From a virus, in the IMG/VR virus record IMGVR_UViG_3300009104_000012, positions 1 to 64,000 of that record: a DNA stretch of 64,000 nucleotides; one strand, written 5' to 3'. Of the stretch, positions 4,962 through 35,723 are shown piece after piece (within the stretch, counting starts at the first letter, position 1; the number at the start of each line of letters is the position of its first letter). A program made the translations under genes and the position numbers. A model generated the notes under the pieces. That model did no database searches and was not told the origin of the DNA. It saw nothing but the letters and a program-made list of their open reading frames with translations.

Positions 4962-4969
4962 AAGCCTCC

Positions 4970-5525: not shown

Positions 5526-5556
5526 ATCTCCCTATTGTTTAATTGTTCAACTTACT

Positions 5557-5585
5557 ATTATAATGGAAAACGCTTAAAATGTCAA
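5557..5585 (-). promoter_or_regulatory. sigma70-type early promoter
   Basis: TTGACA-N17-TATAAT. Confidence 0.8.
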
Positions 5586-5707
5586 GCCCGACTAAAAGCC
5601 CTATATTTACTACGTTTTCACGCCAGGAAAGTCTCTCCAAGCACGCTGGAACGCTTTTCCAAGCCGCTTGTGTATGTCTGTATGGCCCTTTTCCTAGCAA
5701 TTCCATA

Positions 5708-6181: not shown

Positions 6182-6417
6182 TTGCCTCCTAGGTTTAATA
6201 TCATTTGTCCATTTTTTTCAGTTAAGGAACCGTGTTCTTTTTTTTCGTTTTCTTCTATATACTTTTCAAACTCATCAACTTCGTGTTGATACTTTTTAAG
6301 TAATTCTCTAATTTTACCTCTAGTAATAATCTTTGCTGGGTCATCATCTTTTGATTCAACCGTAAGCATTTTATGTAATAATTCTAATTGTTCTATAAAT
6401 TTTAATATTTCAATCAT
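6178..6417 (-). CDS. hypothetical protein
   Basis: 79 aa, coupled to neighbours. Confidence 0.65.
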   Translation of the reverse strand: MIEILKFIEQLELLHKMLTVESKDDDPAKIITRGKIRELLKKYQHEVDEFEKYIEENEKKEHGSLTEKNGQMILNLGGK

Positions 6418-6569
6418 TAATCCGTATCTCCATCTTTATATAATTCATCTAATATACTTCTTTGTTTCTTTGGTTTAGGTTTACTGCCATAATGATATGC
6501 AATCGCAAACCCTATAATAGTTAATATTATACCAATTGTACCTAATCCTATTCCATAACCTAATGTCAT
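6417..6569 (-). CDS. small membrane protein (50 aa, not in ORF track)
   Basis: MTLGYGIGLGTIGIILTIIGFAIAYHYGSKPKPKK..., one TM then a basic patch; SD GGGAG. Confidence 0.6.
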   Translation of the reverse strand: MTLGYGIGLGTIGIILTIIGFAIAYHYGSKPKPKKQRSILDELYKDGDTD

Positions 6570-6703
6570 TATTCAGTTCTCCCACTTATAATATACCATC
6601 TGAAGCCTTCGTTGTCAAGCATTTGTTTTAATTCCATAACTTTATCTTTGCTTCCATCAAATATAATATAATCGTTATATCTTCTGTATATTACTATTCT
6701 CAT
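6569..6703 (-). CDS. small hypothetical protein (44 aa, not in ORF track)
   Basis: MRIVIYRRYNDYIIFDGSKDKVMELKQML...; stop overlaps the next start (TAATG). Confidence 0.5.
   Translation of the reverse strand: MRIVIYRRYNDYIIFDGSKDKVMELKQMLDNEGFRWYIISGRTE
6590..6618 (-). promoter_or_regulatory. sigma70-type early promoter
   Basis: TTGACA-N17-TATATT. Confidence 0.6.
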
Positions 6704-7115
6704 TTAAAATATTTTTTAAATCGTCTAGTGGTTTTACTTCTTTTTCTTTAGCAACACAATCTCCTTTTTCGTTGATTATGTCATCTTCTAAAGCATAAGT
6801 ATCTATTTCTACAAAGCCATCTTCTTTAGCGTATTCTTCATCTTCATAGCAAACTTTACCAAGATATTCAGTAGTATCTGAATCTGTATAATTAGCGTCT
6901 ACCATATATGTTTCAACACCATTTTTAGCTTCGGTAATATTTTTACCTATTTCTGAATATTCTAAACCACCATCATCACAAAACTTCTTATCAGCTTCAT
7001 CTTTATCTTTAGCCAATACATCTTGTTCTATGCATAATGTATAGTATGTTTTTTTTCTGTATAGGTTTTTACCTAAATCGTCTTTAAATACAGATATGTC
7101 TGTTAATTGACTCAT
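6675..7115 (-). CDS. acidic hypothetical protein
   Basis: 146 aa, SD GGAGG. Confidence 0.7.
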   Translation of the reverse strand: MSQLTDISVFKDDLGKNLYRKKTYYTLCIEQDVLAKDKDEADKKFCDDGGLEYSEIGKNITEAKNGVETYMVDANYTDSDTTEYLGKVCYEDEEYAKEDGFVEIDTYALEDDIINEKGDCVAKEKEVKPLDDLKNILNENSNIQKI

Positions 7116-7351
7116 ATTGTTCCTCCGTTTCTTAAATTTTCTACTTCATTTTCTTTTTCTTTTAATACCATTCCAATCCACTCTTCAGCGTCATCTTCAT
7201 TGTGTATACCTTCAAATCCTAAATCACATTTAGCATTTTTTAATTTATTTAAGGCTGTTTCTTTTGTTATTTCGCCTTCCATTAATTTTCTTTCTACATC
7301 ACCTAGAAAGTTCGTAGCTTCGTCCCAAGCCATATTTTTCACTTTACCCAT
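7112..7351 (-). CDS. hypothetical protein
   Basis: 79 aa with an MGKVKNMAWD start of a type common in small phage early genes. Confidence 0.7.
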   Translation of the reverse strand: MGKVKNMAWDEATNFLGDVERKLMEGEITKETALNKLKNAKCDLGFEGIHNEDDAEEWIGMVLKEKENEVENLRNGGTI

Positions 7352-7353
7352 AA

Positions 7354-7827
7354 TTATTGTAGTCCTTTCATATATTGAGTTTTTTTGTTTAAATTCTTGT
7401 AAGTATATTGATTTGTTAATTCTGGTTCAAAATCATATTTAAAAAATTGTCTACCATTTACTAACTGGCCATAATCATTGAATAATGCATTATCATTACC
7501 AACGGTATCGGTACCAAATTCATCTGAATAAGTTGTATAATATTCATCACCAGTAATAATTTCAACTTTAGTAGTACCAGTAGCATTACTAGCTTTCTCT
7601 ATGTAATTCTTATCACAATAAGCTTTGATTTTATCTTTAAATTTTTGATTGTTTAATTTGTTTAGAAATTTGATTGGAACATTTCTAAAAATAGTATGGT
7701 AAATAAAGAAGAATTGATCGTAATTTTCTTCTGCGTCTTGGTATTCTAAAGCGTAAACCAAGTTAAATGTACCATTTTTTGTCAATTTGTTCATAGTTTT
7801 TTCGTCCATTATGTCTATAGGATACAC
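7354..7827 (-). CDS. hypothetical early protein
   Basis: 157 aa; the real start may be a downstream Met. Confidence 0.7.
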   Translation of the reverse strand: MYPIDIMDEKTMNKLTKNGTFNLVYALEYQDAEENYDQFFFIYHTIFRNVPIKFLNKLNNQKFKDKIKAYCDKNYIEKASNATGTTKVEIITGDEYYTTYSDEFGTDTVGNDNALFNDYGQLVNGRQFFKYDFEPELTNQYTYKNLNKKTQYMKGLQ

Positions 7828-7898
7828 TATCCACCAATGGAGTCAAGCACTTTTTTCAATAAAAAAGTCAATAAAATCAACGATTTCTAAATTATTTT

Positions 7899-7913
7899 GT
7901 TCTGGTTTTGTTC
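7899..7913. promoter_or_regulatory. putative alphaproteobacterial LexA (SOS) box
   Basis: GTTC-TGGTTTT-GTTC matches GTTC-N7-GTTC, intergenic and upstream of TTGACT-type promoters. Confidence 0.5.
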
Positions 7914-7920
7914 TAAAAGT

Positions 7921-8640
7921 CTATTTCCAGTTGTTTTTTACCCATTCCTGTGTCGATTCGTGTGGTTTTGGGTTGCCGTGGAACACAGCAATGGAGGCCC
8001 CCTGGACTTGTTCAAAGGTTTGTTCAGCTTTTGAGAAAACTGGATTAGTTCTATTTCGCCATTTATAAGAGAAAGACCACTCGTCTGGATATGGGTTGGT
8101 TTCTGGTCTCTTCCACATTATATCACTAACTACATTTTGGTCACCTTGCATTCTTTGGTATCTCTTTTTATCATTTAAAAAGTTATCCCATATAATTGGA
8201 CTTGTATCACTATGCCACCTCATTATACTTGAATTAAACTGGTTATCTGGTTGACCAAAATCTCTAATAACACAAAAATCCTTTACATCACCATATGTTA
8301 TAAACCTATCTATATTGTCTAATATCACAACATCTAAATCTAGGTAAAACCAATTGCTTATCATTGGTTTAAAATATGGGTGGAACATCTGCAACTTATT
8401 CCACCAACCTTGTAAATCGTGTTCTGGAAATGATTCGAAAGATATATTACCATCTTTGTTATGAATCATTTTAGGTAATTTAACGTGGTCTGTAAAAACG
8501 ATAAAATTATGGGGTATAGTAAGGTGTCTTCTTACCATATAGTATAAAGTTTGTACATAATCGGTACTAAACTTATCTCCCCAATACACACAACAAACAT
8601 TTAAATTTGTTATGCCATTGTCTAACTTAAATGGTTTCAT
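7921..8640 (-). CDS. glycosyltransferase (GT-A, phage type)
   Basis: CVYWGDKF, GWWNKL, YLDLDVVI DxD motif, NSSIM, GDQ, FHGNPKP. Confidence 0.85.
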   Translation of the reverse strand: MKPFKLDNGITNLNVCCVYWGDKFSTDYVQTLYYMVRRHLTIPHNFIVFTDHVKLPKMIHNKDGNISFESFPEHDLQGWWNKLQMFHPYFKPMISNWFYLDLDVVILDNIDRFITYGDVKDFCVIRDFGQPDNQFNSSIMRWHSDTSPIIWDNFLNDKKRYQRMQGDQNVVSDIMWKRPETNPYPDEWSFSYKWRNRTNPVFSKAEQTFEQVQGASIAVFHGNPKPHESTQEWVKNNWK

Positions 8641-8873
8641 ATCCAGGTATTATGGTCTTTAGGATGGTGTTTTGTATCTATATCAAAGATTAAACTTATT
8701 ATCAATACCGTCATAGCAATACCTATAATCATCCAAAGACCTCTTCCTTCGTCCCAATTGGTTAATAGATACCACAAAACTTCAACGCCATTCATTCCTT
8801 CTAATGGATTTACTGGTGTTGCGTTTTGTGTTAGTTTATCAAAAAACTCATCAAGTGCTTTTAGTTCCGACAT
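8637..8873 (-). CDS. small membrane protein
   Basis: One TM segment (LWMIIGIAMTVLIISLIF). Confidence 0.6.
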   Translation of the reverse strand: MSELKALDEFFDKLTQNATPVNPLEGMNGVEVLWYLLTNWDEGRGLWMIIGIAMTVLIISLIFDIDTKHHPKDHNTWI

Positions 8874-9702
8874 TTTGTTTCCTTAATAATTCATATGCTG
8901 TACCATTTTCAATTTCTGATAGGTTAAATTGATTATCTACTATAAATCTCAACCACTCATAAACCGTCTTTCTTCCTGGTCTAAATGGTTTTTCTATTAA
9001 TTCTATTTTTCTACCTGATACTGGAGAAGCTACATTTCTTATATGTGTAATGCAAGGTGTATAATTCATTATAGCATCCACAGCAGCTAAACTCATATTA
9101 GTTACCAAACAATGAGCACCTGATAAATCATCTTTAATATGTTTACCCCACCATTGATTACCAGGTCTTGGTTTATTTCTAACAACTATTTCTTTATCTG
9201 TATATTGTTTTATTTGTGCTACCGTTTCCTCAATCCATTGTTCTTGCGTCATACCATTTATTTCGTGGCAAACGGTAGTAGAAGATGGACATACTAATAT
9301 ATGATTTCTCTTTTCATCACCAGTATCCCAACCTTTAAAATCTACATCTATTCCTTTGCTACTTATTTGTTTAACTCTTTTACCATCACCAACTGAACCT
9401 CGTATTGTATGTAAACCACCTTTAACTATTCTAAAATAAGTTCTATCATAATCGTGTATAATAGGTTCTGGATATCTTGTAATTTGTTCAGTTAAATAAC
9501 CTACATCAACATACCACCACTCTTCTCCGTTCTCCATACATTTAGCAATTTCTTTTCTATTATTTCCTGCTAAACCCCAAAAGAAATGGACAGGTTTATC
9601 TGTTTCAGGCCAACCCTTTTGAAATGCTGGCCACATCTGGTGACTCAAACATTTATCCCAATTTATTTTATGATAGATATTCATTTTCCCATTCCTGGCC
9701 AT
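8851..9702 (-). CDS. polysaccharide-biosynthesis / glycosyltransferase-like protein
   Basis: WWYVDVGY, ILVCPSS, VRNKP, VTNMSLAAVDA; paralogue of 10366-11148. Confidence 0.65.
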   Translation of the reverse strand: MARNGKMNIYHKINWDKCLSHQMWPAFQKGWPETDKPVHFFWGLAGNNRKEIAKCMENGEEWWYVDVGYLTEQITRYPEPIIHDYDRTYFRIVKGGLHTIRGSVGDGKRVKQISSKGIDVDFKGWDTGDEKRNHILVCPSSTTVCHEINGMTQEQWIEETVAQIKQYTDKEIVVRNKPRPGNQWWGKHIKDDLSGAHCLVTNMSLAAVDAIMNYTPCITHIRNVASPVSGRKIELIEKPFRPGRKTVYEWLRFIVDNQFNLSEIENGTAYELLRKQNVGTKST

Positions 9703-10244
9703 CCTTCAGATAGTCCTAAATCTTCCCATTTCTTTCCACCTTCTTGTATATTAAGTAATGGATATTCTCCATTTACTTTATAATAATCATCAACAAATTC
9801 TTTTTCTATTGTATGGTAATCAACTGACATTGTTTTTTTATTTACATCACCTGAAAATGATGGAATAGCAGTCCTTACGGTTGGTAATTTCATAAACCAT
9901 ATCTCTATATTATTATTCTCTTTTAATTCTTTTTGTAAATAATTCCAAATACTATATGTTCGTTTACTTTGACCAACTCTAAATCCATTTAAATAAGCAT
10001 TGATTGTACTTTCAATACCACCTTTTGTTTGTGAACCACCAAACTTAACTATCTTTTTATTATTAGCAATTAAATATAACTTACCATCAGAATCTTGTCT
10101 TTCATCTTTTGTACAGGCAAATTTCATACTTAATTTATTCAAATCATTAAAATGCATTTCACCTAATTTTTGCCAGTAGGTCAAATCAAGTTCATCTATA
10201 GTTTTTATTTGTTTATGCCCTAATAGTTCTGCTAATTTATTCAC
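9681..10244 (-). CDS. GIY-YIG endonuclease, Hpy188I-like
   Basis: GKLYLI...IVKFGGS, IEKEF and YPLLNIQE follow the motif order of Hpy188I as recalled. Confidence 0.6.
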   Translation of the reverse strand: MNKLAELLGHKQIKTIDELDLTYWQKLGEMHFNDLNKLSMKFACTKDERQDSDGKLYLIANNKKIVKFGGSQTKGGIESTINAYLNGFRVGQSKRTYSIWNYLQKELKENNNIEIWFMKLPTVRTAIPSFSGDVNKKTMSVDYHTIEKEFVDDYYKVNGEYPLLNIQEGGKKWEDLGLSEGWPGMGK

Positions 10245-10369
10245 TTCTTTTTCTTTCTTCCAAAATAATGATCTCCAGGTTCATAGTCCCACCTTTTACC
10301 GTGATGACCTCTTAAATCAGCCCACCACATTCTTATTTTAACTATTACTCTTCTAATTCTATAACTCAT
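10241..10369 (-). CDS. small basic protein (42 aa, not in ORF track)
   Basis: MSYRIRRVIVKIRMWWADLRGHHGKRWDYEPGDHYFGRKKKK; overlaps both neighbours by 4 nt. Confidence 0.6.
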   Translation of the reverse strand: MSYRIRRVIVKIRMWWADLRGHHGKRWDYEPGDHYFGRKKKK

Positions 10370-11148
10370 TTATTTTTTAATCTATTCCAGGCGAATCCAT
10401 TTCTTAATTCTGTTAATGTGTATTGATTTGCTAATAAACTATCTATCCACTCACTTCTGTTTTCAGCATATAAAGGTTTCTCTATTTCAAATAAATCTCT
10501 TTTAGATACAGGTAAAGCACAGGATATTTTGTCGCAAAAGGACGGTACACCTGCCAACACAGCGTCAACAGCAGCAGTAGTTTGAAATGATATTACTGCC
10601 CAAGCACCTTTTATTTCTTCCATAAATGGTACTTTTGATGTCTTTAATCTAAACCTTACTTCTCTATCTGTAGACCTTCTTAAAATATTTTTCACTTCAT
10701 CTTCCCAAGTTGTATCACCTAATCCATAATAATTTTTCATAAATTGAGAAGGTGGTAATACTACAATATATGTTCCAGTTAACTGCCAATCTTTTATTGT
10801 TATTTTTTCTCTAAATTTCTTTATCCTATTATAATCTGATTCGTCTAATTTGTCAATATAATTTAATGATAAAGCATTCTTTGTTAATCTATATATTCTA
10901 TCTTTAAATATAGGGTTTATACCGTGTTTTTGTTCTTTGAAATAATAAGCGTGATCAAAGTAATAAAATTCTTTTGATCTTTTTAAAACTTCTCCAGTAC
11001 CTCTTAATACACCAAACATTGATACTGGTTTTGTAATGTCTACCGATTGAAAATCTGGACCGTCTTTATGTAATGTACCACCTGCACTCCGTACAAATGG
11101 GTCTACGACTTGGTCGGTCATAGGTCTTGTCAATAAACCTTGTATCAT
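10366..11148 (-). CDS. polysaccharide-biosynthesis / glycosyltransferase-like protein
   Basis: FYYFDHAY, VVLPPS, SFQTTAAVDAVLAGVP; paralogue of 8851-9702. Confidence 0.65.
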   Translation of the reverse strand: MIQGLLTRPMTDQVVDPFVRSAGGTLHKDGPDFQSVDITKPVSMFGVLRGTGEVLKRSKEFYYFDHAYYFKEQKHGINPIFKDRIYRLTKNALSLNYIDKLDESDYNRIKKFREKITIKDWQLTGTYIVVLPPSQFMKNYYGLGDTTWEDEVKNILRRSTDREVRFRLKTSKVPFMEEIKGAWAVISFQTTAAVDAVLAGVPSFCDKISCALPVSKRDLFEIEKPLYAENRSEWIDSLLANQYTLTELRNGFAWNRLKNK

Positions 11149-11816
11149 AAATTAACTTTTGATGTTTCATTAAAGTTGTTAAACCAATCTATAGAGTAAT
11201 CACAACCTTTGTATTCCTCAAACCAAGGACCGCCTTCTGTAAAGTGAACATTTTTAACATCTTCTTTATATTCATATTCACTAACTAACCAATTCCATTC
11301 TAATGGTAAATCTCCTATCAAATGGTCTCCTTCTAACCATTTAAATTGATGTAATTGTAATCCTGTTGCACTATTCACATAATCTGGTGTTAGTGCTGTA
11401 CACTTATCACAATTCATTAACATAAAACTTGACCAATTTTTCTTAACATATTTTGTTTGAGTTTGACCTAAAAACTTCTTTTCAGTTCTTGGTATATAAT
11501 CGTGTTTACATACTTGTACAGCATATTTTTCGTCTCTTAATCTCCACAATTCTGCAACATCTGTCATCATTAACTGGTCACAATCCATAAACAAAGCCCA
11601 ACCTTTATAGTTCATAAGGTGAGGTACTATAAATCTACTAAAACTAAATTCAGTTGATTCTATATTACTTCGTTCTCTAGTAAAATTATCCTTTATATTT
11701 GGTAAATATATCGGTGTAATAGATACTGGTCTGGTACTCTTTTTTAATATACTATATGAAAGTACATTAAATGCTACTTTTTCTTTACTATCATATCCAA
11801 TAAAAATGTTAATCAT
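11145..11816 (-). CDS. glycosyltransferase (GT8-like)
   Basis: IFIGYD, STEFSFSRF, FMDCD, KNWSS, WNWLV, HFTEGGPW. Confidence 0.88.
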   Translation of the reverse strand: MINIFIGYDSKEKVAFNVLSYSILKKSTRPVSITPIYLPNIKDNFTRERSNIESTEFSFSRFIVPHLMNYKGWALFMDCDQLMMTDVAELWRLRDEKYAVQVCKHDYIPRTEKKFLGQTQTKYVKKNWSSFMLMNCDKCTALTPDYVNSATGLQLHQFKWLEGDHLIGDLPLEWNWLVSEYEYKEDVKNVHFTEGGPWFEEYKGCDYSIDWFNNFNETSKVNL

Positions 11817-12046
11817 TATACATCTGTTCTAATAATATGTTTTCTTAAAGCTCTAACAAGTCTTTCTATGTTATCTATAATATCAATTAAAGTTTTATCT
11901 TTAATATATCCTTGTGATTCTTTTAACTTATCATATTCTTTTAATGAGATTGACACCATTGGTGAATAATCTCTATTACTTTCATTTTCATATGTCTTAT
12001 CGTGTTCATCTGTTGTATCAAATTCGCTCATTGATTTCTGCTCCAT
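11816..12046 (-). CDS. hypothetical protein
   Basis: 76 aa, coupled to neighbours. Confidence 0.6.
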   Translation of the reverse strand: MEQKSMSEFDTTDEHDKTYENESNRDYSPMVSISLKEYDKLKESQGYIKDKTLIDIIDNIERLVRALRKHIIRTDV

Positions 12047-25474: not shown

Positions 25475-25900
25475 TTACTTCATCATTTCAATAATCTCGG
25501 AGAAATTTCCTCCCACAATCCATCCTATAACTATTGCTCCACCTAATATAATCCAACGGTATTTCTCCAACATACCAACTCTACCACCTATATCATTTCT
25601 CAATGCTTTAATTTCGGTAAGTAACCGTCTTTCCACACTATCCATTTCATTTCTTAATTGTGTGGATAATTCTTCAATCTGGTCTTGTCGGTCTTTTAAT
25701 TTTGTAAAGATTATTTCATCTACCTTTTCTTGTTGAGATAATTTCTCTTCGTGTACAGCCAGCATAGACTTTATACTACCTGATACTTCGGTAAGTTTAC
25801 CTATTGCTGTGTCTAATCGTTCTTGGATTGATGTTGCAATAACAACATCTTTTTTAAGATTTTCTACATCTATTTTTAAATCTACTATTGGGTCCGCCAT
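25475..25900 (-). CDS. coiled-coil protein with C-terminal TM (last gene of the curli operon)
   Basis: Heptad-rich, LAVHEE motif, C-terminal WIILGGAIVIGWIV. Confidence 0.75.
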   Translation of the reverse strand: MADPIVDLKIDVENLKKDVVIATSIQERLDTAIGKLTEVSGSIKSMLAVHEEKLSQQEKVDEIIFTKLKDRQDQIEELSTQLRNEMDSVERRLLTEIKALRNDIGGRVGMLEKYRWIILGGAIVIGWIVGGNFSEIIEMMK

Positions 25901-25901
25901 A

Positions 25902-28094
25902 TTAATCCGTTTGTATAATAGTTATATTAGGTTGTGTAGAGGATGTCCCTACATCAATATGTTGAGCCTCTTTGTCTTGTAGTATCTGAATATCAGCCTC
26001 TTTACTAGTTTCTACTTCAATATAAGCTCTATGATTATCATTATATCTATTTATGATTGTGTAATCACCTGAAGTTGAGGCAGTTGCGTCAAAGTCATTA
26101 TTCAATGTTGATACTCTTCCTGTTGAAGTGGTACTTGTTGACACACCACCGCTGGTTGTAGTTAAAGTTTGGGTAATATCTCCTGTAGTATAATTTAAAA
26201 CTTCTCCACTAGCAGTTACCAAAGTTTCTGCAACCGTATTGTCAACCCATTCTGTACCACATTTTTGATTTGCATTGTCCCAATAGTATCCATAGTAATC
26301 ACAATACCATTCATCTAATTCTGCCAACCATAATTCTAATTCCAAATCTGCGTCATAATCATCTTCATAACCATACTCCTCATCTAACGAAGTGCTATCG
26401 TCTCCTGAATCTCCATATGTTCCTGTATAATACCAACTATATGTATTGTCATAAAATAAATTCCAATCTTCATAAGTCCACTCACTTACATACTTATCTT
26501 TTAATCCTTCCATCTTCCAAGGTTTAGGTTGTCCATCACACCACTCATAGTTAGGCCAAGAACCACACCAACCATACCATTTTTTAAATAATTTTTTTGC
26601 TTTCTTTTCCCACGAATCAAAGTCTTTAAATAATGACCAATCATCAGCATACCATTCGTTTAAGTAGTCTAGGTATTTTTGATCACACCAAGATGAATCA
26701 TATCCATTATATTCACAATAGTTTGTTATTGTTAATTCAGGTGGACCACCAGCAGCAATGTATTCTGAATTGTTATAGTAGTCATCTGATAAATCAAAAT
26801 CTTCCCAAGTATATCCTTCAGTTGTTGATGTTGCGTCATCAACTACTTCTTCCGTTTTATCTTCTACAACAGCTGCATTGTAAGAAGTTAATCCATAGTC
26901 TTCTAATAATTTGTTGTATTCAGCTTCATATGCGTCCCAATCTACCTCGTCCCAATTTATAGAGTCCCAATTGATAGTATCCCAAGAACAATCTGAACAA
27001 CCAATAGCGTCAAGGTATGCTTGGTCCATTTCTGAATACATTTTTTTCGCCTCGTCCCAATCCATTTTCTGTTCACCTTCGGCATCCCAAACTGATATTT
27101 GGTTCTCTTCATCAATATAACCCCAATCTTTTAAGTCTTCTTCCCACTCATCATAATAAGATGTATCTATTTCTTCATCTATTATTACTTCTTCTATTGC
27201 AATATCTTGGACTACATTTGTTTCTACTTCTATTGTATCAACTGCTAAATCTGTAGTGGTGCTTTCAGTTTTACCTTCTTCTACCGTTAACTCTTCAGAA
27301 ATAATTGCTTCTTCAATCTTTTGTGCCTCTTCACTATCAATTTCAATGTCTTCAAGTTTTGATTCATCCATTTCTATTTCTTGCCAACCAATGTCTTCAT
27401 TTTCCATTGCTAAAGTAGTATATTTTTTCTCATCTTTAATTTCTTTTTCCATATCATCTATCTTCATCAAATCTTTTTGTTCTACTGGAGATAATACTTT
27501 TGGTGGTTTAGGTGCTAAGTCATTTGAAAGTACGGTTACAGATTCATATACTTGATTAAGTGTTTGAGAACCTGCGTCATTAGATACCGTAACCTCACCT
27601 ATATTTCCTGAAGAATCAGGAAGTAATGTAATTGTAGTTTTACCTGAAGTTTCTACCGTACCTGTAAATGCTGTACCTTGTACCGTAATTGAAGCAGTTG
27701 CTGTAGTAATGTTTACTTCACCACCTAATTTAGATATTGTTCCTGATTCATATGTAAATGACCCTACATTGACATTAATGTTCATTGCAATTTCTATTGG
27801 TACAACCGAAGTATCAAAAGCAAATTCATCTATAGTTAATTCTGTATTAGGTCCCATTGTAAACTTGGTGTTATCAACATAAGATAGAATCATACCACCA
27901 TCTTCTCCTGTCTGGAGAAAATCGTTCATCTGTAAAGCATAACCCATTGAGGTTTTTTGGGTCTCTCCGTCTCTTTCGTTCCAAGTGGAACCCATTTGAC
28001 CTACTACCTCTCCTACATTAACTGCAAGAGCACTAGTACAAAATGCCAGGAAAAAGGCAACTAATAAAAATAGTTTCCTCATTTTAACACCCAC
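25902..28094 (-). CDS. exported FecR-domain protein with long acidic W/Y-rich region
   Basis: Signal peptide; FecR motifs LQTGEDG...DNTKFTMGPNTELTID...TASITVQGTAF; curlin-like IxQ C-terminus. Confidence 0.82.
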   Translation of the reverse strand: MGVKMRKLFLLVAFFLAFCTSALAVNVGEVVGQMGSTWNERDGETQKTSMGYALQMNDFLQTGEDGGMILSYVDNTKFTMGPNTELTIDEFAFDTSVVPIEIAMNINVNVGSFTYESGTISKLGGEVNITTATASITVQGTAFTGTVETSGKTTITLLPDSSGNIGEVTVSNDAGSQTLNQVYESVTVLSNDLAPKPPKVLSPVEQKDLMKIDDMEKEIKDEKKYTTLAMENEDIGWQEIEMDESKLEDIEIDSEEAQKIEEAIISEELTVEEGKTESTTTDLAVDTIEVETNVVQDIAIEEVIIDEEIDTSYYDEWEEDLKDWGYIDEENQISVWDAEGEQKMDWDEAKKMYSEMDQAYLDAIGCSDCSWDTINWDSINWDEVDWDAYEAEYNKLLEDYGLTSYNAAVVEDKTEEVVDDATSTTEGYTWEDFDLSDDYYNNSEYIAAGGPPELTITNYCEYNGYDSSWCDQKYLDYLNEWYADDWSLFKDFDSWEKKAKKLFKKWYGWCGSWPNYEWCDGQPKPWKMEGLKDKYVSEWTYEDWNLFYDNTYSWYYTGTYGDSGDDSTSLDEEYGYEDDYDADLELELWLAELDEWYCDYYGYYWDNANQKCGTEWVDNTVAETLVTASGEVLNYTTGDITQTLTTTSGGVSTSTTSTGRVSTLNNDFDATASTSGDYTIINRYNDNHRAYIEVETSKEADIQILQDKEAQHIDVGTSSTQPNITIIQTD

Positions 28095-29169
28095 TATTAG
28101 TTAATTGAATAGTTGTATCTTCTGTTTGATTATTTCTGTTATAAGAATAAGTACAAGAATCAGAACCGTCTTGGTCTACTAGTAAAGTAAAGTCATAAAT
28201 TGAATCACCTGATACGGTAAGATTTGCTGTATTACTTCCGTTTAATTGTTTTAATTCAACAACTGCTTCACTTGTATAGATATAAACATATGCTGTATTA
28301 CTTCCACCATTTCCATAATATCTAAACACATTACTATTACCACTAGTTACCGTTTTCATATAATTATTATTACCTCTTTGTACCATTCTAACGTGAGAAC
28401 CTGAAACGTCTGGATGAACATCTAAAATATTTGAGTTGCCTATTACGTCGTGTACTTGGTAGTTGCCTGTACCCCAAGAAGCCATATGTACTTGATTTGA
28501 ATTACCAATTATATAAACATCTATCGTTGCGCCTTCACTTCCTGAAGTATCTGCAAATTGTCCGTGTGAAGCAACCTGTGGACCAATTGCCTTATTGGAG
28601 TTTGTATTCATACCTTCTGATAAAGTAGGGTGTGAATAAAATTCTACATCATTTGAATCACCAGACATAAGAACATATAAGAAATGACCATCACCTCTAC
28701 TATACATCCAAAAATCATTTGAGTCTCCAACTATATCTAAATCAACATTGGTAAGTTTAACATCATCACTTGTAACCGTATCTATTTCTACTATGTTTGA
28801 ACCACCTGTAATATCAATATCATAATAATGTCCTTCAGCACCAACATCATCTAAATCTACTCTTAATATATTAGAATTACCTGTAGCTGTATAATCAAAG
28901 GTCATATCCTCACCCATAAATGATTTATGGTTGCTATCGGTTACTAGATTTGAATTACCTATTTGTTTAATGATAAGAGTTAAGTTGTTACCTCTCATAT
29001 TGAAAGTAGATGAGGTACTTATACCAACTTTATTACCAGAGCCATCTTGCTTGATGTAAATTGATCCGTCTGTGTCTTGATTGTCTTGTTTTATCCAAAC
29101 AGAATTACCTGCCCAACAATTAGTTGTTAGGGTTACCAGAGTCACTAGAATCATTATCAGTTTTTTCAT
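28084..29169 (-). CDS. curlin-like repeat protein (CsgA/CsgB-like)
   Basis: Signal peptide; repeated IxQxGxxN / xGxSN motifs (IKQDGSGN, IKQIGNSN, VQRGNNN); C-terminal Cys pair. Confidence 0.78.
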   Translation of the reverse strand: MKKLIMILVTLVTLTTNCWAGNSVWIKQDNQDTDGSIYIKQDGSGNKVGISTSSTFNMRGNNLTLIIKQIGNSNLVTDSNHKSFMGEDMTFDYTATGNSNILRVDLDDVGAEGHYYDIDITGGSNIVEIDTVTSDDVKLTNVDLDIVGDSNDFWMYSRGDGHFLYVLMSGDSNDVEFYSHPTLSEGMNTNSNKAIGPQVASHGQFADTSGSEGATIDVYIIGNSNQVHMASWGTGNYQVHDVIGNSNILDVHPDVSGSHVRMVQRGNNNYMKTVTSGNSNVFRYYGNGGSNTAYVYIYTSEAVVELKQLNGSNTANLTVSGDSIYDFTLLVDQDGSDSCTYSYNRNNQTEDTTIQLTNSGC

Positions 29170-30160
29170 CTTGCTCCTCCTTTTCGTCTGTATCTATTTG
29201 GTTCCATTCTGCTTCGTTAGCTTCTTCTTTTAATTTCTCGTCTGCTATTTCATTTTCTTGTTTAAGTTTCTTTTCTTCAAGGAATTCTTCATAAGTCTTT
29301 TCTTTTTTAGGTCCTGTATCGTGTATATTAAGTTCAATAGCATTCATTTCTACAACTGGTTTATCTTCAACAGCAATCTCTTCTATTGCCAGTTCTTTAT
29401 ATCTCCACAATCCTTTATCAACACCTTCTTTTATTAATTCTACTACACCTTTTTCAATTGCTTTTCTTACTGCAAAGGTAACTGGTTCATTTCTAGCAAC
29501 ACCAGCTTCTACTTCTAATAACATTGTATCAGCGTCAAAGTATTTAAATATATCTGCACCTCTTGATGTAGAAAATATAGTCTTCTCTATTGTAGTTGTT
29601 ATAACTACTTCACCACTTTGTACATTAACCAATCTTAATATAATAGTAACCACATCTTGTCTGTATTGTGCGTGGTTTTGTATACCTAAAATTCTTGCAC
29701 CAACACCACCTGATTTAATATCAGAATCATACCCAACTATACCACCTGTGATATATGCACCAGCAAATAGTAATGCTGGTAAAGGTTCAGCACCTTCTCC
29801 ATCTACTTGTTGTCTTGTAGACCTAATTAATTTTCTTTCTTGTAAGAGACTTGGTAAACTTGCTCTTTCAACAACTCTAAACCATTTGCCATCGCCTGCG
29901 TCTTGTAATGCCTTAATTAATAATTGATAAGACCCTTGCGTTACCGCTGTACTCATTGAAGCAAAGTCTCCACCTGGTTTCTTTTGACCTGTTAAGTCAA
30001 CGAAATCATAAACAGCAATGACTATTGGGTCGCCTTCTAGTTGCTCAACTTTTTCTAAATCTTTATAAGCAACATCAGCTATTCTTACATCAAAGTCTGG
30101 TTTGCCAGCACAACTAACTAATAATAAAGTTAGTAAAAATATTCCTATGTACTTAAACAT
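29120..30160 (-). CDS. csgG: curli secretion pore CsgG
   Basis: Lipobox LVSC, AVYDFVDLTGQKKP, STAVTQG, WFRVVER..L..LLQERKLIR, NEPV. Confidence 0.93.
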   Translation of the reverse strand: MFKYIGIFLLTLLLVSCAGKPDFDVRIADVAYKDLEKVEQLEGDPIVIAVYDFVDLTGQKKPGGDFASMSTAVTQGSYQLLIKALQDAGDGKWFRVVERASLPSLLQERKLIRSTRQQVDGEGAEPLPALLFAGAYITGGIVGYDSDIKSGGVGARILGIQNHAQYRQDVVTIILRLVNVQSGEVVITTTIEKTIFSTSRGADIFKYFDADTMLLEVEAGVARNEPVTFAVRKAIEKGVVELIKEGVDKGLWRYKELAIEEIAVEDKPVVEMNAIELNIHDTGPKKEKTYEEFLEEKKLKQENEIADEKLKEEANEAEWNQIDTDEKEEQDEKTDNDSSDSGNPNN

Positions 30161-30636
30161 TACGAATTGTCTTCCTTCGGCATAGTAAATGTTGTTACCG
30201 TACCATCTGATTCTGTAACCGTTACCGTAACCGTATCATTTGTTCCTGTAGTTGTTGTTGCCCAAGTTACCACTTCACCACCTACTGGTGATGTAAATGT
30301 TCCAGAATCTTGTTGTAATCCATCTGTACCAAATACGTTATCAGTAATTTGTTTAGCAAGAGCTGTGTAAAATCTTGCTTCTAAATTTGCTTTGAATTTT
30401 GCTATAGCTGTTGCTTTAGCTTCTGCTTTTGCTTTTTCAGCGTCAGCTTTTTCAGCAGCTTTAATTGCGTCTTTTCTAGTCTTCTCTATATTCTCTATAG
30501 TTAAATAGTGTGATGATTTACCAACTCCTGAAAATGATGGACTATGGAATTTAAAATCTAATTCACTAGCGTTTACGCTACCATTATATAAAACAAAACC
30601 TACTAAAACTGACAGAAAAATGGCGATTCTGATCAT
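30160..30636 (-). CDS. csgF: curli assembly component CsgF
   Basis: Signal peptide, then ASELDFKFHSPSFSG, the CsgF N-terminal pore-binding motif. Confidence 0.85.
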   Translation of the reverse strand: MIRIAIFLSVLVGFVLYNGSVNASELDFKFHSPSFSGVGKSSHYLTIENIEKTRKDAIKAAEKADAEKAKAEAKATAIAKFKANLEARFYTALAKQITDNVFGTDGLQQDSGTFTSPVGGEVVTWATTTTGTNDTVTVTVTESDGTVTTFTMPKEDNS

Positions 30637-30660
30637 TATATCTCCTCTAATTTACTCCTA

Positions 30661-30668
30661 TATTTATA
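30661..30668 (-). promoter_or_regulatory. T4 late promoter for the csgF operon
   Basis: TATAAATA about 25 nt upstream of the csgF ATG; SD GAGGAG. Confidence 0.75.
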
Positions 30669-30692
30669 AACTTTGACAACTAAATATTGTAA

Positions 30693-32324
30693 ATGATTGC
30701 TATTATTAAAAAAGTAGGCTGGGCTTGGTTAACTATTGCTGTACTTCTATTTTTATATTTAGGAAATCCTACGTTAATGGAGACATCAAGACTTTCCACG
30801 TTTGATTCTTACCAAAAAATAGGTAAGCACTATGATTCCAAAAGCCTAATATTGCTGGATATTTCAGACGCAGCCTTGGAAAAGCAAGGTCAATGGCCTT
30901 GGAAAAGGGACCAATTAGGTCGTGTAGTGGTCAATGCATATAAAAATGGAGCTGCTCTTGTAGTTATGCAAGTAGTCTTCCCACATAAAGATAGATTAGG
31001 TGGTGATGAAATGTTCCTTAAAATGATTACAAAATATCCTGTAATATTAACCGAAACAAATGAAGTTAAAAATCTACAAAGTATTTCCAGAAAATCTTTA
31101 GGTGTAGGTAATGTAGATGTACCTGTAGATATAGACGGTACTATAAGAAAATTACCTGTAAATAATTCCATACCCCAGGTTATATTAAAAGTTATAAACT
31201 TTCCAAAAATAGAACAAGATAATATATGGGTAGATTTTAGATACCATATTCCTAGAATAGATTATACTGATAATGATTGGTCAGGTATGAAAGGTAAAAT
31301 AGTATTCATTGGTACCACATTTAAAGGTTCAACTTTTGTAACCACACCTAATGGATTAAAAAACACTCACGAAATTATGGCAATCAGTACAGAAAATTTA
31401 CTATCAGGAAAATTTATTGATAGACCTGATTGGTTACCTTACGCTGAAGGTGTTTTTATTTTACTTGCTTTATTATTTTTTGTACTAGTTATTCCTAGAT
31501 GTGGTGTAATGTGGTCTTTTCTATGGTATGCTGGATTTATATTTGATATTTTTCTTGGTGCTGGATTTCTATGGTGGAAATACCAATACATAGCTGATTG
31601 GTTTAGTCCTCTATTACTAGGGTCTATACTATGGGCTCACTTAACATATAATAATTATTCAATAGAAAATAAATTAAGACTACAAATTAAAAAACAATTT
31701 GAACATTACTTGGCACCTGCAATGGTACAAAGACTAATGGATAATCCATCACTATTAAAATTAGGTGGTGAAAGAAGAAAATTAACATTTCTATTTTCAG
31801 ACATAAGAGGTTTCACTCCTATATCGGAGAAATTTAAAAATTCTCCTGAAAGACTAACTCGTTATGTTAATAGATTTTTAACTGCAATGACAACCATTAT
31901 ATTACAACACGGTGGTACTATTGATAAGTATATGGGTGATTGTATTATGGCCTTCTGGAACGCACCCCTAGATGTTAAGGAACACAGGAAACTGGCTGTT
32001 CAATGTGCTATAGCAATGAGAAGAAAACTTAAATTAATGAACATAAACAAAGAGTTTATGCCACCTATCAACATTGGTATTGGTATTAATACTGGTGAAT
32101 GTCTTGTTGGAAATATGGGGTCTAAACAAAGATTTGATTATTCAGTTATAGGTGACGCTGTAAATCTAGCAAGTAGATTGGAAGGTGTTAGTAAAAATTA
32201 CAACACCACTATTATAATCGGTGAAGATACTAGGGAGGCTTTAGAAGGTTTTAAATTCTATAAACTTGATGATGTAAAAGTCAAAGGCAAAACTGAAAAG
32301 ATTACCATTTATTCTGTTAGATAA
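30693..32324 (+). CDS. CHASE2-domain class III adenylate cyclase
   Basis: N-terminal TM, GQWPWKR CHASE2 motif, 3 TMs, FSDIRGFT, IDKYMGD, FDYSVIGDAVNLASRLE. Confidence 0.93.
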   Translation: MIAIIKKVGWAWLTIAVLLFLYLGNPTLMETSRLSTFDSYQKIGKHYDSKSLILLDISDAALEKQGQWPWKRDQLGRVVVNAYKNGAALVVMQVVFPHKDRLGGDEMFLKMITKYPVILTETNEVKNLQSISRKSLGVGNVDVPVDIDGTIRKLPVNNSIPQVILKVINFPKIEQDNIWVDFRYHIPRIDYTDNDWSGMKGKIVFIGTTFKGSTFVTTPNGLKNTHEIMAISTENLLSGKFIDRPDWLPYAEGVFILLALLFFVLVIPRCGVMWSFLWYAGFIFDIFLGAGFLWWKYQYIADWFSPLLLGSILWAHLTYNNYSIENKLRLQIKKQFEHYLAPAMVQRLMDNPSLLKLGGERRKLTFLFSDIRGFTPISEKFKNSPERLTRYVNRFLTAMTTIILQHGGTIDKYMGDCIMAFWNAPLDVKEHRKLAVQCAIAMRRKLKLMNINKEFMPPINIGIGINTGECLVGNMGSKQRFDYSVIGDAVNLASRLEGVSKNYNTTIIIGEDTREALEGFKFYKLDDVKVKGKTEKITIYSVR

Positions 32325-32564
32325 TTATCCTTTTATCTTTTTAGTTATCCAAAGTACAGCTGCATACATTATTAAAGCATAAACGGAAACAAATAAAATT
32401 TCTGGAATATATTGAAATACATTGTAGGTTAAATCTAATACTGCTTCAACATCTCCCATTTCAGAAGATCCGTCTTCATCCATATCAATGGTTATAGATT
32501 TGGTAAAATCTCCTTCTACATTACCAACATTTTGTTCTATGTCTAATGTATTGTCTTCGTTCAT
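32325..32564 (-). CDS. small membrane protein
   Basis: Acidic N-terminus with a C-terminal TM. Confidence 0.6.
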   Translation of the reverse strand: MNEDNTLDIEQNVGNVEGDFTKSITIDMDEDGSSEMGDVEAVLDLTYNVFQYIPEILFVSVYALIMYAAVLWITKKIKG

Positions 32565-32728
32565 TTTCTATCTGATAACTTATTAATAAGGTCAAACGCA
32601 ACTTTTACTTTTTCTTTAAGCACGATTATATCTCCGTGCATTTTTGCTAGGACAATTACCAAAGTTATAAACCCTAAAAATAAGGGCCACATCTTCATTA
32701 ACATTGTCATTACTTCTAACGATTCCAT
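32561..32728 (-). CDS. small membrane protein (55 aa, not in ORF track)
   Basis: SD AAGGAG; MESLEVMTMLMKMWPLFLGFITLVIVLAKMHGD...; ATGA overlap with the next gene. Confidence 0.7.
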   Translation of the reverse strand: MESLEVMTMLMKMWPLFLGFITLVIVLAKMHGDIIVLKEKVKVAFDLINKLSDRK

Positions 32729-32867: not shown

Positions 32868-32971
32868 ATTTTCTCCTTAATTTCTTTTCTAAATGCTATA
32901 GCACCGCCAGTAAGTAAAATGAATAGTATTAAATATCCCATTGTTGGTCCGTTATCTATGTATTCAATCAC
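32750..32971 (-). CDS. small membrane protein overlapping the Cys-rich ORF
   Basis: TM in the N-terminal half; the C-terminal half is a frame-shifted shadow of the Cys-rich ORF. Confidence 0.45.
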   Translation of the reverse strand: MIEYIDNGPTMGYLILFILLTGGAIAFRKEIKEKIWKIVEIVNVKHIVQRLAQIAIVKNVIARLAKKKDPIIK

Positions 32972-34164
32972 TTCTTAAACTTGGCAGCTTCTTCTGAACC
33001 TTTTGTAGCACTACCTTTACTATAACTATGTGCTCCCATTCCAGCAAGTTCACCATCTTTTACAATATAATATTTATCTCTTATGTCAGTCTTATCAAAG
33101 AAACATTCCAATATTTCTCTAACACCAGCAGCATATCTATATTGTGCTGATAGAGAAGTTCCACTTGTATGTGGTGTCATACCGTGGTTTGGCATTGTTC
33201 TCCAAACGTGGTCATTTGGTGCTGGTTGTGGAAACCAAACATCACCTGCGTAACCACTTAATTGACCTGACTCTAATGCTCTTGCGATAGCGTCTCTATC
33301 ACAAATCTTTCCTCTAGCAGTATTAACTATATATGCTCCAGGTTTACATTTACCAATTAGTTCATCATTAAATAAATGTTCCGTTTCTGGATGTAAAGGA
33401 CAACTTATATTAATTACATCACATACACTAACTAATGACTCTACTGAATCGTGGAAAGTTAAGTTTAATTCTTTTTCTTTTTCTTCTGGCAATCTATGTC
33501 TATCAAAGTAATGTAAGTGTACATCAAATGGTGCCATCTTTCTTAACATATCATAACCAATACGACCAGCTGCAATTGTTCCTATGTGCATACCTTCTAC
33601 ATCATAAGATCGTTTAACTGCGTCAGCAATATGCCAACCACCTTCGTTAACTATTCTATGTTGATTGTGGTAATCTCTTACTAAAGATAAAATCATCATA
33701 ACTATATGTTCAGCAACTGACCGTGAATTACAATAAGTTACCTCAACTACATCTACTTTATTATCCATCGCAGCTTGTAAATCTACGTGGTCTGAACCAA
33801 TACCTGCTGTGATTGCCATTTTTAAATTTGGTGCTGATTCCATTTTTTCTCTTGTTAAATAATAAGGCCAAAATGGTTGTGATATAACCACATCAGCGTC
33901 AACTAATTCTTTATCTGCTTGACAACCTTCTCCGTCTTTATCAGACGTAACAACTAATGTATGTCCATTGTCTTCTAAAAATTTTCTCAATCCCAATTCA
34001 CCTGATACACAACCTAATAATTCTCCAGGTGTAAAGTCAATTGCTTTGGGTGTTGGTAGTGTCATACCATCTGGATACTTTTCTAATTTAGGTAAGTCTT
34101 TGACAGGATATGATTTTGGCATACCGTCTTTGGGGTCATCATATAATATACATAATATTTTCAT
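32968..34164 (-). CDS. fdh: NAD-dependent formate dehydrogenase
   Basis: LYDDP, LLGCVSGELGLR, SQPFWP, YCNS, AAGRIG, FDRH, NTARG, DVWFPQPAP, MTPHTSG as in Pseudomonas-type FDH. Confidence 0.95.
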   Translation of the reverse strand: MKILCILYDDPKDGMPKSYPVKDLPKLEKYPDGMTLPTPKAIDFTPGELLGCVSGELGLRKFLEDNGHTLVVTSDKDGEGCQADKELVDADVVISQPFWPYYLTREKMESAPNLKMAITAGIGSDHVDLQAAMDNKVDVVEVTYCNSRSVAEHIVMMILSLVRDYHNQHRIVNEGGWHIADAVKRSYDVEGMHIGTIAAGRIGYDMLRKMAPFDVHLHYFDRHRLPEEKEKELNLTFHDSVESLVSVCDVINISCPLHPETEHLFNDELIGKCKPGAYIVNTARGKICDRDAIARALESGQLSGYAGDVWFPQPAPNDHVWRTMPNHGMTPHTSGTSLSAQYRYAAGVREILECFFDKTDIRDKYYIVKDGELAGMGAHSYSKGSATKGSEEAAKFKK

Positions 34165-34547
34165 TATTTTTTCTCTTCTTTCTTTTCTTCCTCATAGTAT
34201 TCTCTATAAGTGTTTAAGATTTGATTTTGTTTCATAATATAAGCACGGATTTGTGCAAAATTCTTTGCTAACTTTTCGTACTCTTCATCTGTAAGTCCAA
34301 ATAAAACTGGATCAATATTATCTTTTTCTAATTTTGCCATTACTTCATCTGCATTTTCAGAAGTGATAATAAGCCAATTTAATTCTTCTAATTTTGGTGC
34401 TGGTGTGTTGTCAAGGTTTAGATGTTGTCTCTCAACCTCGGTTTTGAATATCTGTAGTTTCTTAACGCCTGAACAACTAGTAAGGAACGTAACTAGGATT
34501 AGCGATAGAAGGACACTCTGGATTAATTTGAGATTTCTTCGTAGCAT
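34164..34547 (-). CDS. putative o-spanin (Rz1-like lipoprotein)
   Basis: Lipobox LTSC; overlaps the 3' end of the upstream TM/coiled-coil gene in another frame. Confidence 0.7.
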   Translation of the reverse strand: MLRRNLKLIQSVLLSLILVTFLTSCSGVKKLQIFKTEVERQHLNLDNTPAPKLEELNWLIITSENADEVMAKLEKDNIDPVLFGLTDEEYEKLAKNFAQIRAYIMKQNQILNTYREYYEEEKKEEKK

Positions 34548-34962
34548 TCAATTCTTTCTCCGTCAATGGGCTACCCATTGCAATTTCATTACAACGAATA
34601 GCGTTTTGGGTAGCCCGATTTATTATTTTTTCAATCAGCTTCGGTTTTGCGATAGCGAGGTCACCGACGTCTCTCTTCTTACCTGAAGCATTTGTTTTAT
34701 TAAACTTATCGTCAAGAAGTTTTAAGTCTTTATTCAATTTGCCATTAAGTTCGGTTAACTCTTTGTTGGCATTTAATATGCGTTCAAAGTCTTTCTTTTG
34801 TTGGGCAAGAACCTCTTTTTGAGATTCAACTGCTTCTTCCAGTTTGATTTGATTGGCTTTTAAAATTGCGTTGTCAGAACGTAGTTTCATAACATACATT
34901 CCTGCTCCCGCTATACCAGCAATCATTATGATTGCCATTACCATTTTCAATTGCCCAAACAT
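34477..34962 (-). CDS. putative i-spanin (Rz-like)
   Basis: N-terminal TM, long coiled coil, C-terminal Cys residues. Confidence 0.7.
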   Translation of the reverse strand: MFGQLKMVMAIIMIAGIAGAGMYVMKLRSDNAILKANQIKLEEAVESQKEVLAQQKKDFERILNANKELTELNGKLNKDLKLLDDKFNKTNASGKKRDVGDLAIAKPKLIEKIINRATQNAIRCNEIAMGSPLTEKELNATKKSQINPECPSIANPSYVPY

Positions 34963-34966
34963 TATA

Positions 34967-35125
34967 CTAGTCTTTCTTTAGTATTGCCCAAGCGCCGTAA
35001 GCGATTGCAGCCCAAGCTGCAATGTGAGCAATAGGACTAAAAAATAAAACCACAACACCCATACCGATTAATACTCCACCGTGTAAAGATGTTAGTTCTT
35101 TAATTCTTCCTTTAATAAACTCCAT
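34967..35125 (-). CDS. small two-TM holin-like protein (52 aa, not in ORF track)
   Basis: SD AAGGAG; MEFIKGRIKELTSLHGGVLIGMGVVVLFFSPIAHIAAWAAIAYGAWAILKKD; directly upstream of the spanins. Confidence 0.65.
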   Translation of the reverse strand: MEFIKGRIKELTSLHGGVLIGMGVVVLFFSPIAHIAAWAAIAYGAWAILKKD

Positions 35126-35141
35126 ATTTTTTCTCCTTTTT

Positions 35142-35723
35142 TTATTTTATCTTGGCGTTAACTTTTCTATGTTTATTCCAAGCCATAAATCCACCTAGTC
35201 TCAAAGAGTAGTATGCTAGGTAGTTCATAAGATAGAATCCATTGACTTCTATATTAATATCTCTAAAGATTTCATCTGATCGTTTTTGAGATATAACACC
35301 AAGGGTATCTTTCTTATTTTGTCTTAATAGTGTCTGATACTTATAAGCATAATCGTGTACCAAACCACCCATTAATAACACACCAACTGGTGATAAAAAT
35401 GTATGCAAGAATTTTGGTATACTTGCACCATCAAATTTAAAACCTGCTGGTATAATATATTTATTTCCGTTTAATACATACTCAAAATCTTCTACAATTT
35501 CCCAATGTCTAACACCGAGCAACCATAAAAGAATTCCTTTAAAAAAACCTTTACCTTTTGTTCTTATTGGTATTGGTTTCATTGTTGGCATTTCTGTATA
35601 AGCAAATGTATAACAACTAGCTTTCTTCTTATCAAATAAATTGATAATTAATCCTGCTATAACAACTAATATTAAAATTGTCCACATCCAAAATTTCATT
35701 GCTAAACTTATTAATAATTCCAT
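35142..35723 (-). CDS. DUF1353 protein with N-terminal TM
   Basis: IPAGFKFDGASIP, VHDYAY, SDEIFR, LRLGG. Confidence 0.8.
   Translation of the reverse strand: MELLISLAMKFWMWTILILVVIAGLIINLFDKKKASCYTFAYTEMPTMKPIPIRTKGKGFFKGILLWLLGVRHWEIVEDFEYVLNGNKYIIPAGFKFDGASIPKFLHTFLSPVGVLLMGGLVHDYAYKYQTLLRQNKKDTLGVISQKRSDEIFRDINIEVNGFYLMNYLAYYSLRLGGFMAWNKHRKVNAKIK

Follow-up and report, generated by a model that had tools for sequence, protein, structure and literature searches.

Why should a marine phage carry the genes of a curli secretion pore back to back with a gene for a membrane-bound adenylate cyclase? The question is raised by positions 25475-32728 of a 64,000-nucleotide stretch of viral DNA, which comprises positions 1 to 64,000 of the IMG/VR record IMGVR_UViG_3300009104_000012 and is referred to here as the window. 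The record as a whole spans 73.9 kb and is ~40% complete. The GC content of the window is ~32%, its minus strand holds nearly all of the genes, and the DNA comes from a T4-like marine phage whose host was probably a SAR11 bacterium. An initial annotation of the locus proposed a signalling system spanning the host envelope, in which a curli pore, a FecR-domain protein and a CHASE2 cyclase report an external cue as cyclic AMP (cAMP). We find this kind of trans-envelope sensor plausible but unproven. Tentatively, and with slightly less than an even chance of being right, we read the cassette as a pelagimyophage copy of viral curli that acts as a pore-FecR-cyclase envelope sensor. With its pore, fibre and membrane-bound cyclase, the phage would equip infected cells with a new surface and perhaps also a new way of sensing. 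The cassette itself is already published, and the interest lies in the mechanism, which is unproven.

The curli cassette and its linkage across viruses

We took positions 25475-32728 as seven genes, including a DUF7201 gene and a gene for a membrane protein of 55 amino acids (aa). The open reading frames (ORFs) lay at the coordinates originally annotated. The genes of the cassette are intact and encode CsgF, CsgG, a CsgA-like curlin, an exported FecR-fold protein and a CHASE2 class III cyclase. As had been described, the genes for CsgF, CsgG, a curlin-like protein and a FecR-domain protein stand in one block, and the cyclase is indeed the sole long plus-strand gene of the window. The two pore genes matched their Pfam families at 168 bits for csgG (29120-30160, minus strand, 346 aa) and 39.5 bits for csgF (30160-30636, minus strand, 158 aa; also phrog_35372). 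CsgG has the LVSC lipobox of an outer-membrane lipoprotein, and the signal peptide of CsgF is followed by the pore-binding motif FKFHSPSFSG. CsgG of the window type also bears an acidic, lysine-rich C-terminal extension of ~90 aa (aa 256-346, 29120-29390), which overlaps the start of the curlin gene by 50 nt and is absent from CsgG of the type found in phage HTVC008M.

The curlin-like gene (28084-29169, minus strand) encodes a protein of 361 aa with a signal peptide. It had no Pfam match above threshold, as Curlin_rpt (PF07012) scored 10.2 bits against a cut-off of 20.7. Its assignment comes from repeats of the Q-x-G-x-G-N type, with invariant Gly and Asn columns, and from a predicted CsgA-type beta-solenoid (predicted local distance difference test, pLDDT, 74; predicted template modelling score, pTM, 0.76). 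The model best matched the solved CsgA of Pontibacter korlensis (8c50_A; Z 24.4, 255 residues aligned, 22% identity), compared with Z ≤ 16.7 for generic beta-helices. Foldseek against the PDB gave weak beta-helix rows only, and a wider structure search retrieved CsgA. These results agree with the curlin-like identity first assigned. The window thus shares with the CsgBAC-CsgDEFG system of E. coli a CsgG lipoprotein, the N-terminal motif of CsgF and a CsgA-type solenoid, but differs in being without CsgE, CsgD, CsgC and a recognisable CsgB.

Curli genes in pelagiphages are not new. In pelagimyophages the operon is known from the work of Zaragoza-Solas et al. 2020 (PMC7029224), and Buchholz et al. 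2022 proposed a role in lysis (PMC9004378). Wittmers et al. 2022 reported FecR, an adenylate cyclase and, in podophages, a histidine kinase in the viral type VIII region, together with the spread of this region and its expression in metatranscriptomes (PMC9599517). The CHASE2 domain is unnamed in all three papers, and the host is without curli genes of its own (PMC9004378, PMC9599517). A cassette with FecR and cyclase is therefore already published, and the present copy is a rearranged member. Like the type VIII cassettes of HTVC008M (KC465899, 7562-13807) and Melnitz (MZ577097), it contains csgF, csgG, curlin, a FecR gene and the cyclase, and it lacks CsgE. It also sits in the same T4-like marine backbone, and proteins of the window are 30-50% identical to those of the isolates. 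No near-identical DNA was found in isolate phages. Whereas all cassette genes of HTVC008M and Melnitz point in one direction, the cyclase of the window has moved to the csgF end and is inverted. Relative to the HTVC008M type, the FecR protein is twice as long owing to a folded insert rich in Trp and Cys, CsgG is extended, and a second curlin gene is missing.

We asked how far these genes stay together. The cyclase has relatives in more than 600 viral stretches, and we read 80 of these loci. In all 50 that were readable the cyclase adjoins the cassette, with 29 in the colinear and 21 in the divergent order. Where at least 6 kb of flank was available, hidden Markov models (HMMs) detected CsgG, CsgF and curlin in 29 of 30 loci and FecR in 30 of 30. 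Among 50,697 phage records, CsgG and the cyclase matched the same isolates only. In a tree of the cyclases the viral sequences form one clade, with the colinear order basal and the divergent order confined to two separate clades. As the branches concerned are well supported, the arrangement must have changed at least twice, and adjacency was kept throughout. The co-occurrence that the initial annotation had wanted checked holds in phages, where the evidence supports a single conserved unit made up of the pore genes, the gene for the FecR-fold protein and that for the CHASE2 cyclase. One cyclase nesting among the viral sequences came from a 2,180-bp contig (L084) in a metagenome-assembled genome labelled 'Rhizobiaceae'; from its place in the tree, the contig is probably of phage origin and was binned with bacterial DNA.

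FecR-CHASE2 pairs in bacteria and the exported protein

The 80 closest bacterial cyclases are mostly from Alphaproteobacteria and Omnitrophota and 30-46% identical. A FecR protein was encoded within 10 kb of the cyclase in 31 of the 80 loci, and in 22 of the 39 with full flanks, so the pairing of FecR proteins with CHASE2 cyclases in bacteria stands. Published work had noted that CHASE2 cyclases of Campylobacterota cluster with outer-membrane proteins bearing a FecR domain (PMC9239204), and that in Burkholderia LysM-FecR genes are neighbours of CHASE2 kinases. CsgG or CsgF occurred within 10 kb in none of the 80 loci, and CsgG was absent from the whole genome in five of these bacteria. In 22 of the 80, type I secretion genes (an ABC transporter plus HlyD) lay no more than 10 kb from the cyclase, mostly abutting it, and the FecR proteins ended in cadherin-like, RTX, DUF4114 or TbpB-type tails. 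The order in Afipia birgiae (L145) is a FecR-cadherin protein, the ABC transporter, HlyD, the cyclase and a gene of metallo-beta-lactamase fold; in another alphaproteobacterium (L089) the neighbours of the cyclase are a TolC-like gene, the gene of a FecR-RTX protein and ABC/HlyD genes.

These clusters, as in Afipia birgiae and those of PMC9239204, share with the phage cassette the cyclase clade, the N-terminal FecR domain and an export route through the outer membrane. They differ in that the route is of the ABC/HlyD/TolC-like kind, CsgG is absent and the tail is RTX or cadherin, whereas the tail in phages is curlin-like. Given that the bacterial FecR-cyclase clusters also hold outer-membrane secretion genes, the combination of pore, FecR protein and CHASE2 cyclase is a recurring design. 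An export route, a FecR-headed exported protein and a CHASE2 cyclase recur as a triad in bacteria and phages, and only the route is swapped. This supports the envelope-spanning unit proposed at the outset. That one FecR-CHASE2 pair accompanies type I secretion of adhesins in bacteria but a curli pore in phages also provides a testable model for an orphan sensor domain and for a puzzling phage cassette. The metallo-beta-lactamase-fold gene is a separate observation: it lies within 10 kb of the cyclase in 9 of the 80 bacterial loci (L145:12272-13114 and eight more) and directly after it in L100, L144, L145 and L159, none was seen in the phage cassette, and it may encode a cyclic-nucleotide phosphodiesterase.

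The two forms of the triad meet in one viral record, L059 (172 kb, ~47% complete). At positions 2125-12011 it encodes a FecR-cadherin-RTX protein of 1471 aa, a TolC-like gene, HlyD-like pieces, a CHASE2 cyclase and a homologue of the 55-aa gene. The record showed no CsgG, gp23 or T4-type primase, and its cyclase takes a basal position among the viral cyclases, on a long branch. The record could represent an evolutionary intermediate or, alternatively, a misclassified contig.

The bacterial comparison bears on another account of the cassette, namely plain fibre production. A curli-like amyloid coat could serve for aggregation ('sibling capture') or as a shield against other phages, with FecR and cyclase as loosely attached regulators. 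Such a role was proposed in PMC7029224 and PMC9599517, and it agrees with a CsgA-like subunit, CsgG and CsgF that are all present and intact, as well as with the second curlin gene of HTVC008M-type cassettes, which passes the Pfam Curlin_rpt cut-off at 26.7 bits. However, it does not explain why FecR and the CHASE2 cyclase have stayed beside the pore genes (29 of 30 loci) through rearrangements, nor why the FecR-cyclase pair lies next to type I secretion genes in bacteria. Moreover, Melnitz cultures did not clump (PMC9004378). We regard fibre production alone as somewhat unlikely.

The exported FecR-fold protein is encoded at 25902-28094 (minus strand, 730 aa). Its Pfam FecR score of 22 bits falls just below the cut-off of 24, and the fold confirms the domain, in addition to phrog_37870 and the alignment. 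The model has five parts: a signal helix, a beta domain (aa 26-217, 27444-28019), a disordered acidic stretch (aa 222-306), a folded middle (aa 310-570, 26385-27167) and a C-terminal beta module (aa 600-730, 25905-26297; pLDDT 70-84). The beta domain matched the periplasmic signalling domain of PupR (6ovk_R; Z 15.9, root-mean-square deviation (rmsd) 2.5, 137 residues) and a Bacteroidetes anti-sigma factor (4m0n; Z 15.4). Residues 24-121 gave a moderate match (Z 8.0, rmsd 2.1, 74 of 76 residues) to 5ix9, the periplasmic anchoring domain of the adhesin MpIBP and the template for the LapA retention module (bioRxiv 10.1101/198937). We count both resemblances, of the head to a signalling domain and of its first half to the retention domain of a pore-anchored adhesin, in favour of a sensor.

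The middle is not a loose linker in the model, which predicts a mostly helical, acidic fold rich in Trp and Cys (pLDDT 85-92; 6 Cys, 21 Trp). Alignment showed that FecR proteins of the HTVC008M type keep the head, the acidic linker and the tail, and that the folded middle is absent from them and found only in the clade of the window. The C-terminal module ends in ITIIQTD, which is common to both phage clades, with paired strands and nearly invariant I726 and Q728. Neither the middle nor the C-terminal part had a clear structural match when searched within the whole 730-aa model. A fusion of FecR with the second curlin gene was ruled out as an origin of the long protein, as the alignment shows an insert inside one conserved architecture.

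Does the FecR domain instead point to iron? Wittmers et al. took it as a hint in this direction, and in an uptake channel without a CsgE gate the pore would stand open to nutrients or cofactors. The absence of CsgE (PF10627), claimed originally for the window, extends to this record, a complete relative, HTVC008M and Melnitz, as such a channel would have it. Nevertheless, the FecR protein showed no anti-sigma domain or membrane anchor before its FecR domain, which directly follows the signal peptide, and neither an extracytoplasmic function (ECF) sigma factor nor a TonB-dependent transducer was seen in the ORFs of ~21.4-36.2 kb or in the ten flanking proteins scanned. The bacterial cousins carry RTX or cadherin adhesin modules rather than iron-uptake partners. 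The protein shares the FecR/PupR domain but is not a member of the anti-sigma regulators, and we consider an uptake channel highly improbable.

A possible architectural parallel is with adhesins of the LapA/MpIBP type, which have a folded N-terminal domain in the periplasm, a flexible stretch and a surface-exposed remainder, an order that the FecR protein may share; the match to their retention domain is moderate (Z 8). Unlike them, the window has no type I system, RTX signal or recognisable LapG or LapD. In addition, the adhesin systems sense cyclic di-GMP from inside the cell, whereas the messenger here would be cAMP made in response. A specific version of the sensor follows this parallel. 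The FecR protein would be a tether threaded through or docked at the pore, with its tail on the fibre or on CsgF outside and its head read by CHASE2, so that cAMP would report from the outside in; the arrangement would derive from bacterial type I adhesin-CHASE2 modules in which a curli pore took the place of the type I system, and L059 would be an intermediate that has survived. If true, the host would gain a means of sensing, from the outside in, how much fibre it bears, whether it touches other cells or in what state secretion is. In this detailed form the proposal is unlikely.

The cyclase, its control region and the proposed signal

The output of any such sensor would come from the cyclase (30693-32324, plus strand, 543 aa), which matched CHASE2 at 93 bits and Guanylate_cyc at 88 bits. 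By Pfam range, the periplasmic CHASE2 sensor domain covers aa 17-262 (30741-31478) and the catalytic domain aa 363-540 (31779-32312). CHASE2 lies between hydrophobic segments at aa 1-29 and 246-279, upstream of the catalytic domain. The best solved relatives are CyaB of Pseudomonas aeruginosa (3r5g) and the cyanobacterial Cya (2w01). Of the catalytic residues assigned by the initial annotation, D370, D416, K412, N491 and R495 are present, but alignment to CyaB placed the second base-selecting position at S484, opposite a Thr of CyaB, and not at D482 of the FDY motif. With Ser484 at this position the cyclase is class IIIb-like (Lys/Ser). None of D370, K412, D416, S484, N491 and R495 varies among 32 viral homologues.

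In Sinorhizobium meliloti, signalling through CyaK requires NsrA, a protein of the outer membrane (PMC7529298), and the NsrA-CyaK/CyaD1/CyaD2-Clr system (PMC7529298, PMC13001267) resembles the proposed sensor in having CHASE2 cyclases that need an outer-membrane protein and an output of cAMP. It differs in that its reader, Clr, and its signal, the plant protein uL2, are known, and in that the partner is a beta-barrel rather than a curli pore. Removal of the CHASE2 domain alters the output of CyaD1 in S. meliloti. The initial annotation cited the NsrA-CyaK type as a precedent for FecR-like proteins paired with CHASE2 cyclases; a FecR domain in NsrA itself is putative.

The 56-bp gap between csgF and the cyclase (30637-30692, assigned to neither strand) proved to be head-to-head as first described, with the late-type motif TATAAATA in front of csgF (minus strand, 30661-30668). 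Seven copies of TATAAATA occur in the window, all on the coding strand, compared with ~18 expected over both strands from shuffled sequences; the motif is avoided except where it probably serves as a late promoter. Facing the other way, the plus strand carries CTAAATA (30680-30686), separated by exactly 6 nt from the start codon of the cyclase, with no ribosome-binding site. Most of 20 relatives of the divergent type keep TATTTATA, which is TATAAATA on the csgF strand, in the gap, and most likewise keep the motif of the cyclase strand, [C/A/T]TAAATA. The latter was present in 13 gaps, the window included, and in 9 of these the spacing to the ATG is exactly 6 nt. The pattern suggests back-to-back late promoters and a putative leaderless cyclase mRNA. 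As late-type motifs run in both directions in this gap and are conserved in relatives, co-expression is likely.

A sigma-70 promoter for the cyclase was considered and rejected, as TTGACA is present in the gap but no -10 hexamer could be found by eye at the right spacing. RNA-library contigs from the same sample were identical to csgF over 30381-30633 at low depth, and may stem from DNA carry-over. In four metatranscriptome runs no contig covered the cyclase, a blank that is not evidence.

Late expression is what a lysis pore would call for. CsgG and CsgF might form a gated channel or a pinholin-like timer triggered by cAMP, in keeping with the analogy to lysis inhibition drawn by the initial annotation and with the role proposed in PMC9004378. 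A lysis-like cassette also lies 2 kb away (34164-35723). Yet nothing in the relatives ties the curli cassette to holin, endolysin or spanin genes, the evidence gives no link to the timing of lysis, to superinfection or to amyloid sensing, and in HTVC008M and Melnitz the cassette sits between the replication and baseplate modules. Furthermore, a ~1 nm pore in the outer membrane leaves the curlin and FecR genes unexplained. We judge a lysis pore very unlikely.

The envelope sensor that we prefer would work in three steps. Late in infection, the CsgG/CsgF pore would be placed in the outer membrane of the host and curlin exported through it; the identities of these proteins are clear, and export is presumed. 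The FecR-fold protein, with its head, acidic linker and curlin-like tail, would join the pore or the fibre and leave its head in the periplasm. There the inner-membrane CHASE2 cyclase would read the state of the periplasm and produce cAMP or a related cyclic nucleotide. The phage version would thereby copy the bacterial FecR-CHASE2 clusters, with a curli pore replacing the type I system.

Several points weigh against this proposal, beginning with the fact that every step of the mechanism is a prediction from sequence or model. A folded middle with 6 Cys fits poorly, if modelled correctly, with a pore that passes unfolded chains. Base specificity of the predicted cyclase rests on Lys412 and Ser484 and would hold by analogy only. 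A cNMP-binding (cyclic nucleotide monophosphate) domain was absent from this record, HTVC008M, Melnitz and a complete 171-kb relative, in line with the original remark that no CRP gene is present in the window, and these phage records show no cAMP reader. Such domains were found in 308 of 401 alphaproteobacterial genomes, a class-level search in which SAR11 was not singled out. Adjacency could partly reflect common descent of one acquired block. Finally, in 17 loci of the window type, divergence of the FecR domain tracked CsgG (rho 0.77) and CsgF (0.65) far more closely than CHASE2 (0.30). This mirror-tree analysis gave no specific signal of FecR-CHASE2 co-evolution (rho 0.30-0.36; the full set includes mis-assigned ORFs, from which only the 17 window-type rows are free). 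That FecR follows CsgG and CsgF rather than CHASE2 can be accounted for by linkage and recombination. A complex prediction of the FecR domain (aa 24-210) with CHASE2 (aa 29-250) scored 0.00 and is uninformative either way.

The partly uncoupled history of the cyclase and the operon would suit another account, in which the cyclase independently manipulates the host by raising cAMP, like an auxiliary metabolic gene, and arrived in the same transferred block as the curli genes. The single clade of viral cyclases is likewise consistent with one acquisition. Against this, the periplasmic CHASE2 domain is kept and conserved where a soluble cyclase would suffice, adjacency outlasted at least two relocations, and the phage records contain no cAMP receptor. 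Independent manipulation is distinctly unlikely in our view.

Genes at the edges of the cassette

The initial annotation had included in the operon a gene for a coiled-coil and transmembrane protein (25475-25900, minus strand, 141 aa). This gene is DUF7201 by Pfam and goes with the primase rather than with the cassette. DUF7201 adjoins the primase in both cassette arrangements and is fused to it in phrog_451. It occurs in 64 phage records, mostly cyanomyophages (~56) and also phage Mosig, and both CsgG and the cyclase are missing from the cyanomyophage records and from Mosig. Some 100 kb separate DUF7201 from the cassette in HTVC008M, and the two are also far apart in Melnitz.

At the other end, the 55-aa membrane protein (32561-32728, minus strand) has no Pfam or phrog basis, and its position is conserved in relatives. 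In most of their loci the gene is found next to the cyclase or ahead of csgF, at an edge of the cassette, and the homologue beside the cyclase of L059 matched at E 1e-32. Cassettes of the HTVC008M type start with two paralogous membrane/coiled-coil genes of ~90 aa, followed by csgF (L063:4628-5163 and like loci). These two genes may correspond to the histidine kinase named by Wittmers et al. Their similarity to the 55-aa gene is weak (HMM E 0.016; hhalign probability < 2%), and BLASTP gave no match between them.

Beyond the cassette, positions 34164-35723 hold the lysis-like group, which consists of a lipoprotein gene overlapping that of a coiled-coil membrane protein, a small gene with two transmembrane segments and a DUF1353-like gene. 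Over 34639-34997 and 35156-35268 this group was matched identically by contigs from an RNA library of the same sample. Just before it, positions 32968-34164 encode a full-length 2-hydroxyacid dehydrogenase resembling formate dehydrogenase, with 89-92% identity in related phages. In three metatranscriptome runs this gene had the heaviest coverage by related contigs, which were 90-95% alike.

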